Virus record (IMG/VR): IMGVR_UViG_3300042363_000066
Location: 1 to 30,678 of that record
DNA from: a virus
Taxonomy: Duplodnaviria; Caudoviricetes
Reading direction: 5' to 3' (one strand)
DNA length: 30,678 nucleotides
Part shown: in pieces, positions 1,705-11,174 of the stretch
Layout of the letters: each line of letters opens with the position of its first letter
Numbering within the stretch: the first letter of the stretch is position 1
Translations under genes and position numbers: made by a program
The notes under the pieces: model-generated
What the model was told of the DNA's origin: nothing
The model's input: the letters and a program-made list of their open reading frames with translations, nothing else
The model's database searches: none

Positions 1705-2133
1705 ATGCTAACTAGAAATAAAGATGTTTCAATAAGACAACTAAAGGATTTATACTATGCGCAACGTAATACCCATATGCAGCTACACGAAATGATGTCG
1801 CAATTAGGGTTGTTAGGCATAGAAGATAATGAGCCTTTAGGTGCGGATATAGGTGCGAGAAGCATCGTCAAATTAGTAGAAGAAGTATTTGAATGCGATG
1901 TACTGAAAAAAGACAGGTCTTTAAAAACTACCTTCGGGCGCAAAGCTGCTGCCTATCTACTCAGGCGATATACTAAATTGAGCCTTAAAGAGATTAGCGC
2001 ATACAGTGGCACTAAAGACCATACAACCGCAATTCATAATATAAAACAAGCAAATAACCTAATTGATACGGAAGATTGGTTTAAAGACAAAATGAAAAGA
2101 ATTTGTCAAAAAATTGAAATTATACAAAATTAG
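1705..2133 (+). CDS. DnaA C-terminal (domain IV) HTH-containing protein
   Basis: RKAAAYLLRRYTKLSLKEISAYSGTKDHTTAIH resembles the DnaA domain IV signature (R..AMYL.R..T..SL..IG..FG.RDHTTV.H). Confidence 0.82.
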   Translation: MLTRNKDVSIRQLKDLYYAQRNTHMQLHEMMSQLGLLGIEDNEPLGADIGARSIVKLVEEVFECDVLKKDRSLKTTFGRKAAAYLLRRYTKLSLKEISAYSGTKDHTTAIHNIKQANNLIDTEDWFKDKMKRICQKIEIIQN

Positions 2134-2143
2134 TCTATATTTG
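2114..2143 (+). promoter_or_regulatory. Bacteroidota housekeeping-type promoter (-33/-7)
   Basis: TTG at 2114-2116, 19-nt spacer, TATATTTG at 2136-2143 (TAnnTTTG consensus). Confidence 0.75.
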
Positions 2144-2152
2144 CAGTATATA

Positions 2153-2243
2153 AGACACATAGACGAACTGCGAACCGCCTATGTGTTTAGTGGTTAAATA
2201 ATAATAACCCTGATAGTTCGCAGCTATCGGGGTTTATTTTTTT
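2153..2243 (+). promoter_or_regulatory. Structured 5' leader: two hairpins with complementary loops; second hairpin is terminator-like
   Basis: Stem 1 AGACACATAG/CTATGTGTTT with loop containing CTGCGAA; stem 2 AACCCTGATAG/CTATCGGGGTT with loop TTCGCAG, followed by TATTTTTTT and the ATG. Confidence 0.7.
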
Positions 2244-2948
2244 ATGGCAAAAGACCCAGCTTTTTTATTTTACCCCGGCGACTATGTTAGTGGCACAATG
2301 GGAATGACATTTGAAGAAAAAGGTGCATATATGGACCTGCTTATGCTTCAATTTAACCGAGGTCATATGAATCATCATATGATAGTTCATACGGTTGGTC
2401 ACTTGTGGGAACAAGTGAAATGCAAGTTTATACAAGATGACGAAGGTTTATGGTATAATGTCAGGCTTGACATTGAGAAGGATAAACGTAAAACCTTTAC
2501 AGAATCTAGGAGAAACAATATAAAATCAAAAAATAAAGCTACATTAGACACTACATATGAAACGCATATGAATAGTCATATGAAGCCTCATATGGAAAAT
2601 GTAAATATAAATATAAATAAAGATTTAAATAATAATAAAAGTAGATGTAGTTTTGAACAGGCTTTTGAGTATATGGCTACACGGATAGGAGTAGACCAAG
2701 CTAAGATTGAAGCCGAAAAATTCGTAAATTACTACGAAAGCAACGGATGGAAAGTCGGTAAAAACCCTATGAAAAGTTGGACACACGCCGTAAATAATTG
2801 GATAAATAACGCTAAACTATATGCAAAAGGAACTACAAATAATCAACGAAAACTTACAAAAGGAGAACAGTTTAACCTTGATGGATACAACCTCATTAAC
2901 GCTACTACCTATGGAGCAGGAGATTATGACCGCATTTTCGGGGGATAG
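2244..2948 (+). CDS. Phage replication initiator (DUF1376/YdaU-like N-terminus)
   Basis: MAKDPAFLFYPGDY..GT..MTFEEKGAYMDLL N-terminus; C-terminal AEKFVNYYESNGWKVGKNPMKSW; internal repeats. Confidence 0.78.
   Translation: MAKDPAFLFYPGDYVSGTMGMTFEEKGAYMDLLMLQFNRGHMNHHMIVHTVGHLWEQVKCKFIQDDEGLWYNVRLDIEKDKRKTFTESRRNNIKSKNKATLDTTYETHMNSHMKPHMENVNININKDLNNNKSRCSFEQAFEYMATRIGVDQAKIEAEKFVNYYESNGWKVGKNPMKSWTHAVNNWINNAKLYAKGTTNNQRKLTKGEQFNLDGYNLINATTYGAGDYDRIFGG
2554..2641. repeat. Iteron-like CATATG array plus AT-rich tract (putative replication origin)
   Basis: CATATG at 2554, 2565, 2577 and 2589 (11-12 bp spacing), then an almost pure A/T stretch; a second array lies at 2364-2405. Confidence 0.65.
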
Positions 2949-3596: not shown

Positions 3597-3902
3597 ATGA
3601 CCGCAAACGAATTAACCAAAGAAGCTATCCAAAAGCTAAATAAAAACGGATGCTTTGTATGGCGTAATAACAATTTAGCGGTTAGAGGTCGCACCTTTAT
3701 AGGTTTAAAAGGAGTGCCAGATGTTGTAGGATTTCATACTCAAACAGGAGTAGCGGTATATTGCGAGACTAAAGCAATAGGAGACAAACTTAGCAGCTAC
3801 CAAATAGCATTTTTAAACTTAGCAAAAACGGCAAATTGTTTTTGTTACATAGCAACCGAAGACAACGGCAAACTAACCTTAAAAGAATATGAACAAGAAT
3901 AG
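3597..3902 (+). CDS. VRR-NUC domain nuclease (Holliday-junction resolvase-like)
   Basis: GVPDVVG...YCETKA...LSSYQIAFL PD-(D/E)xK pattern of the VRR-NUC family. Confidence 0.85.
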   Translation: MTANELTKEAIQKLNKNGCFVWRNNNLAVRGRTFIGLKGVPDVVGFHTQTGVAVYCETKAIGDKLSSYQIAFLNLAKTANCFCYIATEDNGKLTLKEYEQE

Positions 3903-4365
3903 CATCATATTAGAACTTTGGGAGAGCCGAGAACTAAAGGAAGCAATAGATAAAATGCAGCCTGAAGATTTACGAGAAGATTTAAGAAGCGAAATATTTA
4001 AGGTGCTATGCGAAATGGACGAGGAACGTTTAATTGATATGCGCACCCGTAATGTATTAAAGTTCTATTTAGTTCGCACTATGATTAATATGATGCAAAG
4101 TAACACTAGCCAATTTTATCGCACATACCGAAAGCCTTTAGAAGTAGAATTGATAGTACACGATAGAGACGAAGATTTACTTAATAAAGTAGAAGATGAG
4201 TTATCTAAGATGCATTGGTACAAAGCGGAACTTTTAAGAGTTTATGCAATTAAGCATAATTGCAACGCTAAAGAATTAAGCAGGGTTACAGGTATACCTT
4301 ATATGTCAATCCATAGGGAACTAAAACTAACTAAACGAGAACTTAAAAAACAATTACGCAAATGA
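3889..4365 (+). CDS. Phage sigma-factor-like transcriptional regulator (ECF-like)
   Basis: EDLRSEIF (region 2-like) and C-terminal HTH NAKELSRVTGIPYMSIHRELKLTK (region 4-like); 158 aa. Confidence 0.7.
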   Translation: MNKNSIILELWESRELKEAIDKMQPEDLREDLRSEIFKVLCEMDEERLIDMRTRNVLKFYLVRTMINMMQSNTSQFYRTYRKPLEVELIVHDRDEDLLNKVEDELSKMHWYKAELLRVYAIKHNCNAKELSRVTGIPYMSIHRELKLTKRELKKQLRK

Positions 4366-7294: not shown

Positions 7295-7512
7295 GAAAGT
7301 TAAACGCAATCTGGTTACTGCTTACACATAAGGCATACTTTTTAGCAGTATGTAAGACAGGTATGGATGGCGATGATATGACCACAATAGGACATTACAC
7401 ATATGCAATGGCAGAAACCCTAATTAATAAACATATAGCAGACGTAGACACATACCTTGACCAAGAGGATGCGTTAGGAGAAGCACAAGACATTATAAAC
7501 GGCATACTATGA
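7291..7512 (+). CDS. Hypothetical protein
   Basis: ATGA-coupled at both ends. Confidence 0.7.
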   Translation: MRKLNAIWLLLTHKAYFLAVCKTGMDGDDMTTIGHYTYAMAETLINKHIADVDTYLDQEDALGEAQDIINGIL

Positions 7513-8096
7513 TACAAAACGTACAAATTAACCAAGTAAAAGCAAACCCAAATAATCCCAGAATAATTAAGGATGATAAGTTTGCAAAATTAGTAAAGTC
7601 TATTACGGACTTCCCCCAGATGCTAAACCTAAGACCTATAGTAGTTAATGACGATATGGTTGTACTTGGTGGCAATATGCGACTAAAGGCTTGTAAGGAA
7701 GCAGGACTTAAAGAGATACCAATCATAAAAGCTAGTGAACTAACCGAGCAGCAACAAAAGGAGTTTATAGTGAAAGACAATGTAGGATATGGAGAATGGG
7801 ATTGGGATGACCTAGCTAATAATTGGGATGCAGAAGAATTAACCGAGTGGGGATTAGATGTATGGACCAATAGCATAGGCGATGAACTGCTAACTATAGA
7901 TGACACTATCGATGAAAGCAAAGATAGTTCTCCTAAAATTACAGATGAAGGATATTCATTATTTGAAATAGTAATGTTACACGAAAATAAATTAGTACTT
8001 TTGGATGTAATAAACCAATTAAAAAGAGAATTTTTGTTTGAAAAAACAGAAGAAGCTATAATGGAATTAATTAGAATTTATCAAAATAAAAAATAA
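7509..8096 (+). CDS. ParB/Srx-like domain protein
   Basis: NPNNPRII...LRPIVVN..MVVLGGNMRLKAC...FIVKDNVGYGEWD. Confidence 0.88.
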   Translation: MIQNVQINQVKANPNNPRIIKDDKFAKLVKSITDFPQMLNLRPIVVNDDMVVLGGNMRLKACKEAGLKEIPIIKASELTEQQQKEFIVKDNVGYGEWDWDDLANNWDAEELTEWGLDVWTNSIGDELLTIDDTIDESKDSSPKITDEGYSLFEIVMLHENKLVLLDVINQLKREFLFEKTEEAIMELIRIYQNKK

Positions 8097-8100
8097 AACA

Positions 8101-8898
8101 ATGAGAAAAGAAAATAGCGCATTCATAAGTTTTGGAAAATCTGATAGCGGATTGATATTTGATGATTCAAATAATGAAACATATCCAATTAGATACTATA
8201 ATGTTATTAATGGAGTAGGTGCTGAGTTAAATAAAAACTATTCTTATTATGGATATGTATATAGCGGCAATGTAACTATTAATAGAAAATGGCTAAATTC
8301 TATAGAGTTAAATAGTCATATGTATTTTAGTTTGTCAGATGAATTTAATTTTTCAACTAATGTTATTGGCAGTTGTATTTTAATTGAGGTACTTAATAAA
8401 AAGTTTTACGAGACATCTAACTATAAAGCATATCCAACTTTTGGCGGTCCAATAGAAGATAAAGGAAGATTAAAATATATTGACGGATGTACTGATAGTT
8501 TATTAATATCTCCTGTAAAGAAAGGACAACCTTGTTTAAATCATTTGCATTTTCCACCTGAGATTAATCAAACACAACATACACACCCTACACATAGAAT
8601 TGGAATAGTTGCATCTGGTTACGGAGAATGTATTACACCATTTGGAAATTTACCTTTAGAGCCTGAGATGATATTTGTTATTAAAGCTTGGGATGGCGTA
8701 TTATATGATAAAGGATTAGATGGCGAACTATACGCAATAGGACAACACGCATTTCAAACATTTGATGCTCCTATGAATGTAATTGCTTTTCATCCAGATA
8801 GCGACTTCGGACCAGAAGATGAGTTTCATCCAATGATTAACCGTACAATAGTAAATGGCGTTTCAGCTAATAAGCTAAAAGACATAATGACAAAGTAA
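8101..8898 (+). CDS. Cupin-fold metal-binding protein
   Basis: LHFPPEINQTQHTHPTHRIGIVASGYG (HxH motif 1) and QHAFQT...VIAFHP (motif 2). Confidence 0.75.
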   Translation: MRKENSAFISFGKSDSGLIFDDSNNETYPIRYYNVINGVGAELNKNYSYYGYVYSGNVTINRKWLNSIELNSHMYFSLSDEFNFSTNVIGSCILIEVLNKKFYETSNYKAYPTFGGPIEDKGRLKYIDGCTDSLLISPVKKGQPCLNHLHFPPEINQTQHTHPTHRIGIVASGYGECITPFGNLPLEPEMIFVIKAWDGVLYDKGLDGELYAIGQHAFQTFDAPMNVIAFHPDSDFGPEDEFHPMINRTIVNGVSANKLKDIMTK

Positions 8899-10091
8899 TG
8901 AGTAAGATTAGAAAAAAGGATTACCAATCGAGCAATGTATTAGAAGCTGCATTAGATAGGATGCGATACCTGTATGATAGTTTTGATAATGTAGAAATAG
9001 GTTTTTCAGGCGGAAAGGATAGTACTGTTGTTTTGAATTTAGCCATAAAGGTTGCTCGTGAAAAAAATAAACTTCCTGTAATAGCAAATTTTTATGACGA
9101 AGAAGCGATACACCCGACAACTATTGAATATGTACAAAGGGTAAGCGAACATCCAGACGTTAAACTTAATTGGTTCTGTTTAGAGTTTAAACATCGTAAT
9201 GCTTCATCAAACGAAGAACCTTATTGGTATACTTGGGATAAAGACAAAAAAGATTTATGGGTTCGTGATATGCCAGAAAATTGTATAAAGGAACATCCTA
9301 AGTTTGTAAAGGGTTTATCTTTCCAACAATTTACATCATATAGAGCTGATAAATCTAAAGGCACAACTGTAGATGTAACAGGAGTAAGGACACAAGAAAG
9401 CCTTAGAAGATTTCAGGCAGTATCACAAAAAGTAAACGATAACTATATTTCAAGATACGGGCATTTTTCTATTGCGCATCCAATATACGATTGGAGCAGT
9501 CAAGACGTATGGAAATTGGTACACGAGTGGGATATAGATTATAATAAAACATATGATATATTTAACAAAACAGAACTGAGTAACAAGTTTCTTACTCAAA
9601 GAGTTTGCCCACCATTTGGAGAAGAACCATTAAGAGGGTTATGGATATATGCAGAATGCTTCCCGGACCTATGGCATAAAATGCTTAATAGAGTAGAGGG
9701 CGTTGCTACTGCTTGGCGATATGCTAATACAGAATTATACGGAGTAGGCGGAATACAAAAGCCAGACGAATTAAGTTGGAAGGAATACCTTTCCTATATC
9801 GTAGATACTTATTCAGGTAAAGAAAGAAACTTTGTAATAGAAAATATTAACAGATATATTACATTGCATAAAGACAGGGCTAAAGATAACATAGCAGACA
9901 TAGAAGCCAATCCATTAACCGGCATTTCTTATAGGTGGCTTTGCAAAATTGCACACAAAGGAGATTTTAAAGGAAGGCAGTTGCCAGATAATGAAAGGGC
10001 TGCGGCTATGAAACGATTAGATATAAATCAAGATGATGCAGTATATTTATACGGTAACGAAAAATACAAAAAGCAATACTTTAAAAAATGA
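8898..10091 (+). CDS. PAPS-reductase-family PP-loop protein (IbrA/YbdN/DUF3440-like)
   Basis: FSGGKDS PP-loop, GVRTQESLRR, PIYDWSSQDVW, QRVCPPFG. Confidence 0.88.
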   Translation: MSKIRKKDYQSSNVLEAALDRMRYLYDSFDNVEIGFSGGKDSTVVLNLAIKVAREKNKLPVIANFYDEEAIHPTTIEYVQRVSEHPDVKLNWFCLEFKHRNASSNEEPYWYTWDKDKKDLWVRDMPENCIKEHPKFVKGLSFQQFTSYRADKSKGTTVDVTGVRTQESLRRFQAVSQKVNDNYISRYGHFSIAHPIYDWSSQDVWKLVHEWDIDYNKTYDIFNKTELSNKFLTQRVCPPFGEEPLRGLWIYAECFPDLWHKMLNRVEGVATAWRYANTELYGVGGIQKPDELSWKEYLSYIVDTYSGKERNFVIENINRYITLHKDRAKDNIADIEANPLTGISYRWLCKIAHKGDFKGRQLPDNERAAAMKRLDINQDDAVYLYGNEKYKKQYFKK

Positions 10092-10660
10092 TTGACAAAA
10101 ATCAATATCCATCTGTTACCCGCATATTAGCGAAAACAAAACCGCAGTCAGATATTGATATGCTTGAAAAATGGAGAATTAAAGTAGGTCCTATAGAAGC
10201 AGACAGGATAAGTAATGCCGCCTTAGAGCGTGGTAAGATGTACGATACCTTCATCGAGGATTATGTAAATGGCATAGACATACCGCATAAAAAACTGCAA
10301 GAGTATTTAAAACAATTTCAAATAGTATCAAGAGAAGAAAACGTATATAGTAGCCAATATCTATATAAAGGTAGATATGATTGTATATTTGCTAAAAATG
10401 GAATATTAGTACTAAATGATTTTAAAGGCTCAGGAAAAAAGAAAACAAAGAAATGGCTAAAAGATTACCCTTTACAGATAGCCGCATATATAAAAGCATT
10501 AGAAGAAGTTGGGGTAATTATTAATTGGGGTATGATAACCGTGATACTCGATGATGAAATACAGACCTTTGTTTATGACCATTGCGAAATAGAAACTTAT
10601 TTTATAGAATTTTTAAAAAGACTAAAACAGTATAATGATGAAACAAATGCCAATATCTAA
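10088..10660 (+). CDS. PD-(D/E)xK exonuclease (phage exonuclease/Cas4-like)
   Basis: YPSVTRIL, RG..Y..IE, YKGRYDCI, NDFKGS, LQIAAY. Confidence 0.82.
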   Translation: MIDKNQYPSVTRILAKTKPQSDIDMLEKWRIKVGPIEADRISNAALERGKMYDTFIEDYVNGIDIPHKKLQEYLKQFQIVSREENVYSSQYLYKGRYDCIFAKNGILVLNDFKGSGKKKTKKWLKDYPLQIAAYIKALEEVGVIINWGMITVILDDEIQTFVYDHCEIETYFIEFLKRLKQYNDETNANI

Positions 10661-11174
10661 CGTACAATGGTTAGACAGAAACGAACTATCCCCAAACCTA
10701 TATAATCCAAATAAGGTTGCACCGCCAGAAATGGCACTACTGAAACAAAGTATATTACAAGACGGATGGCTATTCCCTATTATTGTATTCGATAAGACAA
10801 TACACATAGAAAACCTAACAGATAATAAAGACCTAAATAAGTACACAATCATAGATGGCTTTCATAGGTATACGATAAGCGGAGACAAAGACATATACAA
10901 ACTGAGCGATGGCAAAGTGCCTGTAGTTATCCTAAACCCTAGCAACCCATTAGCTACAACCGTTAGGATGAATAGAGCAAAAGGTACACACGCCGTATTA
11001 AAGATGGGCGACATCGTAAAGAACCAAATAGATAACGGAAAGCAGCTAAGTGAGATAATGAGCGAGTTCGGTATGGAGAAAGAAGAAGTGGTTAGATTAG
11101 CAAATAGGATGGGAATACACAAGACTGATATTATTGTAGATACCGATTGGAGCAATTCTTGGTTACCAAAATAA
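10635..11174 (+). CDS. ParB-like nuclease domain protein (IbrB/YbdM-like)
   Basis: PNLYNPNKVAPPEMALLKQSILQDGW..PI, IIDGFHR, TVRMNRAKGTH. Confidence 0.88.
   Translation: MMKQMPISNVQWLDRNELSPNLYNPNKVAPPEMALLKQSILQDGWLFPIIVFDKTIHIENLTDNKDLNKYTIIDGFHRYTISGDKDIYKLSDGKVPVVILNPSNPLATTVRMNRAKGTHAVLKMGDIVKNQIDNGKQLSEIMSEFGMEKEEVVRLANRMGIHKTDIIVDTDWSNSWLPK

Follow-up and report, generated by a model that had tools for sequence, protein, structure and literature searches.

The locus and its genes

The window, i.e. the whole stretch of DNA analysed here, is a 30.7-kb phage record with co-oriented genes. A leader (2153-2243) lies in the 110-nt gap between the genes at 1705-2133 and 2244-2948, and the features in and around it are as follows.

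1705..2133, + strand: upstream gene with a DnaA C-terminal helix-turn-helix domain (Pfam PF08299, E 5.5e-12)
2114..2143, + strand: predicted Bacteroidota promoter, TTG at 2114-2116, 19-nt spacer, -7 box TATATTTG at 2136-2143 (from sequence and relatives)
2153..2188, + strand: hairpin 1, 10 bp, a mismatch and 2 bp, with a 10-nt loop (2 + 7 + 1), -11.5 kcal/mol
2168..2174, + strand: loop code 1, CUGCGAA, pairing with 2217-2223 (covariation)
2181..2201, + strand: six-codon frame MCLVVK, probably incidental, its ATG inside hairpin 1
2187..2213, + strand: predicted alternative helix (2187-2196 with 2205-2213), a candidate anti-terminator that hides the terminator 5' arm (truncated-transcript folds)
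2206..2243, + strand: hairpin 2 and U-rich tract, predicted intrinsic terminator with a 7-nt loop (terminator scan), -16.8 kcal/mol
2217..2223, + strand: loop code 2, UUCGCAG, complementary to loop 1 at every position in 184 of 185 loci, contig duplicates counted
2244..2948, + strand: DUF1376-like gene, likely replication initiator (PF07120, E 1.5e-5, below the Pfam cut-off; PHROG primosomal protein)
2554..2641, + strand: four CATATG repeats 11-12 nt apart, then a 93% AT stretch, inside the DUF1376-like gene; likely replication origin

The gene with the DnaA-C helix-turn-helix domain was found upstream in all 90 leaders of this kind (type I below) that were checked. The product of the DUF1376-like gene is likely a replication initiator, judging from its PHROG matches, the internal repeats with the AT-rich stretch and the labels on relatives. 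The sequence-only reading had used the same label. The primosomal PHROG matches and the repeats speak for it, whereas the DUF1376 match is below the Pfam cut-off and the protein fold search returned winged-helix matches only, all non-significant, with no solved relative. The repeats and AT-rich stretch within the gene are arranged like the lambda origin, which lies within gene O. Relatives of an alternative first gene are labelled 'replication initiation protein'.

In related phages, the gene after the type I leader may encode either of two DUF1376 types, a Lin1244-like protein, a third type without annotation, or an HNH or GIY-YIG nuclease, and where a gene has been inserted before the initiator the leader remains ahead of the insert. 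As its front position is kept with HNH, GIY-YIG and other initiator-type genes in the lead, the leader marks the start of the operon and not one particular gene. The last gene of the presumed replication operon (3889-4365) has no Pfam family, and its position suggests a late-gene activator. Further downstream (7509-11174), ParB-like, PAPS-reductase-like and nuclease genes stand before the terminase and may form a DNA-modification module.

Tyrosine integrase and HTH_3 repressor domains are absent in 5 of 5 complete related genomes, in a scan for these two domain types.

Promoter and architecture of the leader

The sequence-only reading had placed a consensus promoter ahead of the leader. A promoter box is indeed found there, but it is of the Bacteroidota type, for which the consensus is TTTG/TANNTTTG according to PMC6847099. 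The -7 box TATATTTG alone is frequent, with 34 copies on the + strand of the window. However, it is found at a fixed place relative to the leader in 113 of 113 related regions, and this fixed position supports the promoter call. A sigma-70 promoter was rejected, as a scan gives 9 sites where 8.6 are expected by chance. The end of the promoter, TTTGCAG at 2140-2146, agrees with loop 2 at 6 of 7 letters; since it is invariant across the loop codes described below, the match is probably a coincidence.

Both hairpins, both loops, the U-tract and the ATG lie where that first reading had put them, and the two loops (CTGCGAA and TTCGCAG) are exact 7-nt reverse complements, as it had noted. The fold of the leader has a z-score of -3.03. 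An enclosed, exactly complementary 7-nt loop pair appears in 0 of 3000 dinucleotide shuffles when stems of at least 7 bp are required, and in 8 of 3000 with stems of at least 5 bp. An eighth pair, C2175-G2216, had also been proposed, but it is not conserved: among 99 distinct elements, seven have A at this position and two have T. In type I leaders G2216 instead forms the pair that closes loop 2 (G2216-C2224), which never varies, and the conserved loop-loop contact is therefore exactly 7 bp.

Hairpin 2 proper covers 2206-2234, the U-rich tract runs to 2243 and the ATG follows at 2244. The likeness to an intrinsic terminator holds: the terminator scan picks up hairpin 2, and a GC-rich hairpin followed by a U-tract is conserved in relatives. 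The suggestion that this hairpin also covers the translation start region stands only in part, as hairpin 2 ends 9 nt before the ATG and only an A-U extension of it would reach the start region. The stop of the MCLVVK frame is kept in 65 of the 68 distinct type I leaders and lost in three. A leader peptide as a general feature is unsupported; no equivalent frame was seen in the alignment of the second leader type.

Conservation and covariation

A protein-led search gave 79 loci, comprising 66 with a type I leader, 3 cut off upstream, 7 with a second leader type and 3 with neither. A scan with the linker pattern contributed 119 further loci. The 68 distinct type I leaders give 476 cells for the loop-loop helix, of which 475 are paired. 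In five of its seven pairs both partners have changed, no pair has changed in one partner alone, and the helix contains no G-U pair, though the stems accept G-U. None of 500 shuffles reaches its covariation score, and controls in which the loops are slid drop to 36-40% paired. In the same leaders, hairpin 1 is paired in 99.4% of cells, with double changes in 3 of 12 pairs, and hairpin 2 in 97.7%. Kinship among the leaders inflates these covariation counts, and the independent units are the six loop codes. The only leader with a mismatch in the loop helix (A-C; L123:453-549, minus strand) may be a recombinant of two codes, a point mutant or an assembly error.

The covariation among homologues that the sequence-only reading had called for is clearly seen, i.e. 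loop complementarity is preserved through compensatory changes, both here and in the second type. That the paired complementary loops are real is close to certain.

Other collections yielded little. A metagenome scan returned mostly chance matches, with 2 true leaders among 119, both paired, and none of the other 117 paired. A strict detector run on 51 loci from a genome collection gave one doubtful direct match. Among cultured phages, blastn found no leader and only a 41-nt terminator-like match; by eye, phage Pan5 has no leader before its HNH gene, and Flavobacterium phage 1/32 has no gap ahead of the homologous gene. A Porphyromonas phage has a gap of 61 nt.

A second type of leader

More distant phages carry a leader of another layout (type II), with a short first hairpin, a long terminator and loops of 7 and 7 nt. 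A search with one distant initiator gave 59 distinct upstream regions, of which 49 passed the loop-pair detector (43 type II, 6 type I). Four of the ten misses were later accounted for by truncation, an inserted gene or a variant, and six were not. Of 30 distinct type II sequences, 25 were aligned, and both partners have changed in 19 of the 24 pairs. The rows were selected for complementary loops, so that their 100% loop pairing holds by construction. As an unbiased check, a model without the loop-loop term found two more leaders, L305:389-483 and L259, both with exact 7-nt complements and new codes. The first of these is a type II leader with the code GTTGCAG/CTGCAAC, and the same contig has a looser leader before the initiator.

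The models of types I and II do not match each other, which leaves a shared design only and no case for common ancestry. The type II model found nothing in 151 genomes from the family of G016 or in 5 others, in a search without a positive control in which few candidates were scored. Two type II leaders with different codes stand in tandem in L079, one (159-253) before an inserted ATPase-GNAT gene and the other (1409-1503) before the initiator. In the long hairpin, a purine-rich GAA/GGA internal loop recurs (columns 48-50 and 70-72 of type II alignment A3) and might bend the hairpin.

The loop codes

Type I leaders use six codes: CTGCGAA, CTACGAA, GTACGAA, GAGCGAA, AGTCCAG and AGTCGAG. With seven type II codes, there are at least 13 natural codes. 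The loops are the most variable columns of the leader, at 0.88 bit versus 0.17-0.38 elsewhere, and this also holds for the 31 protein-led rows alone (0.54 versus 0.09-0.36). The codes are near-orthogonal, with a true mismatch in 29 of 30 cross-code pairings.

Mapped onto a 90-row tree of the upstream gene, the six codes require 41 changes; the minimum would be 5, and shuffled codes average 48.2. The well-supported branches alone force 3-10 changes per code. The codes are still more clustered than in 200 of 200 shuffles, on a tree in which 34 of 86 inner branches are unresolved. From these changes across the tree it follows that both loops travel together as a cassette. Even with no selection on the code, the swapping could come from a general mosaicism in these phages. 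The earlier proposal of a variable specificity code is supported in that the loops are the most variable part, near-orthogonal and swapped between lineages, while action of the code in trans would be a further step. Records whose names indicate a shared dataset carry four codes (L107, L112, L146, L182) or three (L012, L132, L151), an apparent coexistence. In L206:505-603 the code is reversed compared with L070, i.e. loop 1 of one is loop 2 of the other.

A third pairing site near the start codon was considered and rejected. Neither near the ATG nor upstream is there a site that tracks the code in 109 regions, where a leader's own code matches no better than the other codes. The first 150 nt after the ATG show no own-code excess in these regions. 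Elsewhere in 15 genomes no such site was found, and in G004 and G009 the own code occurs only in the leader.

An uncatalogued RNA element

Rfam 15 at the gathering threshold gives no match in the window, and none at E<=1 in six related loci. The best weak match, trpB, reaches 28.7 of 59 bits and is driven by the terminator. The earlier statement that the leader belongs to no named RNA family thus agrees with the Rfam search. The element is not described in the literature searched, which takes in a minority of the subscription papers, and the readable supplements of a phage RNA screen (PMC10690425) hold no match. It may be an unnamed entry in the remaining alignments or supplements of that paper or of PMC5737381, the sources being accessible in part. 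Judged from sequence comparison, it is a real, uncatalogued RNA element with swappable loop codes, heading a likely replication operon.

How the leader may act

It is very probable that the leader has a role in gating the downstream operon. A minus-strand Bacteroidota -7 box is found in none of the 113 regions between -39 and +219 nt of the linker, in a sequence scan that an atypical promoter could escape, and at +220 to +242 in only 12. Without a third site and without a placed antisense promoter box, the sole remaining candidate for a partner in trans is the short terminated RNA.

Folds of truncated transcripts predict that, after hairpin 1, the alternative helix 2187-2196/2205-2213 (-6.5 kcal/mol) forms before the terminator and leaves the loop-2 letters free. 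In 61 of 68 type I leaders this helix is at least as stable as -3 kcal/mol. It is weak in the seven GAGCGAA leaders (-2.8) and missing in L210 and L212. A similar helix is predicted in many, but not all, type II leaders. The type I helix shows no double-sided change because the linker does not vary.

We suggest that pairing of the two loops in cis favours read-through, and that the terminated RNA of ~90 nt blocks this pairing in trans and favours termination. We give this reading, i.e. the direction together with the action in trans, a probability of roughly 45%. Transcription would start just past the Bacteroidota promoter box. Hairpin 1 and the small alternative helix hiding the terminator 5' arm would then fold first, and loop 1 would catch the emerging loop-2 letters and hinder completion of the terminator, so that the operon is read early in infection. 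As terminated transcripts accumulate, they would show loop 2 on a stable stem and bind loop 1 of new transcripts, which would lead to termination. The outcome would be a feedback on the dose of the initiator and the exclusion of phages sharing the code; this would account for the persistence and swapping of several codes.

The sequence-only reading had drawn parallels to IncI plasmids and to P4 and P1. They are useful for a possible mode of working but not for membership, as a defining property of each is lacking here. For RNAs derived from a leader and acting on their own transcript, P4 CI and IsrK are precedents (PMC4825925). In P4, according to the same source, RNA from the leader of the replication operon base-pairs with and prematurely terminates that operon. 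The logic is the same as in our preferred model, a leader RNA terminating its own operon, and the layout here, with promoter box, leader and predicted terminator, would allow a regulator made from the leader of the operon it controls, as for P4 CI and P1 C4. However, P4 CI (with seqA and seqC) arises by processing of the leader and acts on two targets, one upstream and one downstream, whereas this leader has one 7-nt partner, a regulator loop on the terminator itself and no Rfam match. A second target was found neither in the 109 regions around the ATG nor in the 15 genomes.

It can further be speculated that non-integrating freshwater Bacteroidota phages gate replication by an RNA password, i.e. 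a leader of ~90 nt that is both sensor and regulator and whose swappable 7-letter codes define immunity or copy-number groups, without an antisense gene or a repressor protein. We hold this wider proposal somewhat more tentatively than the mechanism itself. Exclusion would presuppose a resident state, and the absence of tyrosine integrase and HTH_3 domains in 5 of 5 genomes counts against it.

The energies are compatible with a competition between the states. In all 11 code groups, the pre-terminator fold plus the loop duplex differs from the unkissed terminator state by between -6.5 and +5 kcal/mol (ViennaRNA, whose model leaves out pseudoknots; no pseudoknot penalty was added and the terminator state was left unkissed). 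If the finished terminator also kisses in cis, it would win over the pre-terminator state by several kcal/mol. A crude estimate of the geometry suggests that in type I the terminator can do so once complete, as a span of 67-87 A is needed versus 106 A available; type II is borderline. A kiss made with hairpin 2 in place would be in line with the unchanging pairs that close loop 2. A finished terminator kissed in cis would mask the short RNA, and this is an objection to action in trans. The lack of double-sided changes in the alternative helix, and its weakness or absence in some leaders, likewise speak against the read-through model.

A first alternative is a purely cis device. The kiss would tune the folding speed or the strength of the terminator and thereby set a fixed read-through or delay, and the codes would drift by compensation and spread by recombination. 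Covariation by itself demands only matching loops, the cis kiss appears geometrically feasible in type I by the above crude estimate, and the search for a third site or partner found none. However, the loops vary beyond any stem and shun the G-U pairs that stems accept, and the codes are near-orthogonal, which speaks against this alternative. We regard it as the less probable explanation, at about half the weight of the trans model.

Slightly less likely still is a device of the opposite polarity, in which the cis kiss locks both terminator and start shut and the accumulated short RNA opens them in trans, as a sensor of copy number or multiplicity that turns replication on. The exact 7-nt loop 2, closed by invariant pairs in both leader types, and the A-U extension of hairpin 2 that covers the start region would suit such a lock. 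The model for it is IsrK of the Gifsy-1 prophage, where the short, terminated form of the RNA works in trans on its own read-through mRNA and activates it (PMC4825925). IsrK differs in that its pairing extends far along the downstream frame and switches on the translation of an antirepressor, while the complement here is a 7-nt loop pair inside a leader that precedes replication genes. No extended complementarity to the downstream frame was seen, as judged by the lack of own-code excess up to 150 nt after the ATG. Further, the alternative helix would hide the terminator arm before the 3' arm exists, and a lone infecting genome would begin in the off state.

A classical antisense system, as in IncI/IncB or pT181, is improbable. 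In such a system an RNA from the opposite strand would bind loop 1 and prevent the cis pairing. The layout is indeed the same, with a loop-based pseudoknot before the rep gene: in the I-complex plasmids (ColIb-P9 repZ, IncB, IncK, IncL/M) this pseudoknot activates expression and the loop letters set incompatibility, according to PMC8383071 and PMC10724649. The pT181-type attenuators choose between two alternative leader folds with termination before rep (PMC8383071). This leader shares with the former a long-range loop-mediated pairing upstream of the initiator gene and with the latter the alternative folds, here predicted, and in many relatives a U-rich run comes after hairpin 1 when it is read on the minus strand. 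However, the I-complex plasmids rely on a counter-transcribed RNA against the loop and on translational control, and the pT181 type is driven by a countertranscript. Here none is predicted, the scan of 113 regions having shown no conserved antisense promoter, hairpin 2 is terminator-like and the mini-frame is not conserved across the types.

The remaining roles, a self-oligomerising short RNA (similar to the phi29 packaging RNA), host-RNA targeting, a ssDNA element or an operator for the upstream helix-turn-helix protein, are even more improbable, since the element is fixed at the head of the replication operon, the G-U pairs are those of a + strand structure, an adjacent DnaA-like gene is absent from type II loci such as L075 and the code does not track the tree of the helix-turn-helix gene. 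In favour of an operator, the 3' arm of hairpin 1, which does not vary, agrees with the DnaA box consensus at 7 of 9 letters. In favour of an oligomer, self-complementary loops permit it (PMC4201828).

If the proposed action in trans is true, these leaders would form a minimal, protein-free exclusion or copy-control system, and their natural variants a set of orthogonal RNA attenuators for use in Bacteroidota. If they act only in cis, they are still an uncatalogued RNA family with unusually clean covariation.

Looser leaders

Five loci on genome-collection contigs (L302, L303, L305, L318 and L325) have looser leaders upstream of the initiator, in which 6-10 nt of a 5' segment match the terminator loop. 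In L318, a single locus of putative kinship, the predicted cis pairing reaches into the 3' arm of the terminator, in favour of the preferred model. Some of these looser leaders have a frame of 9-10 codons between the 5' segment and the terminator loop.
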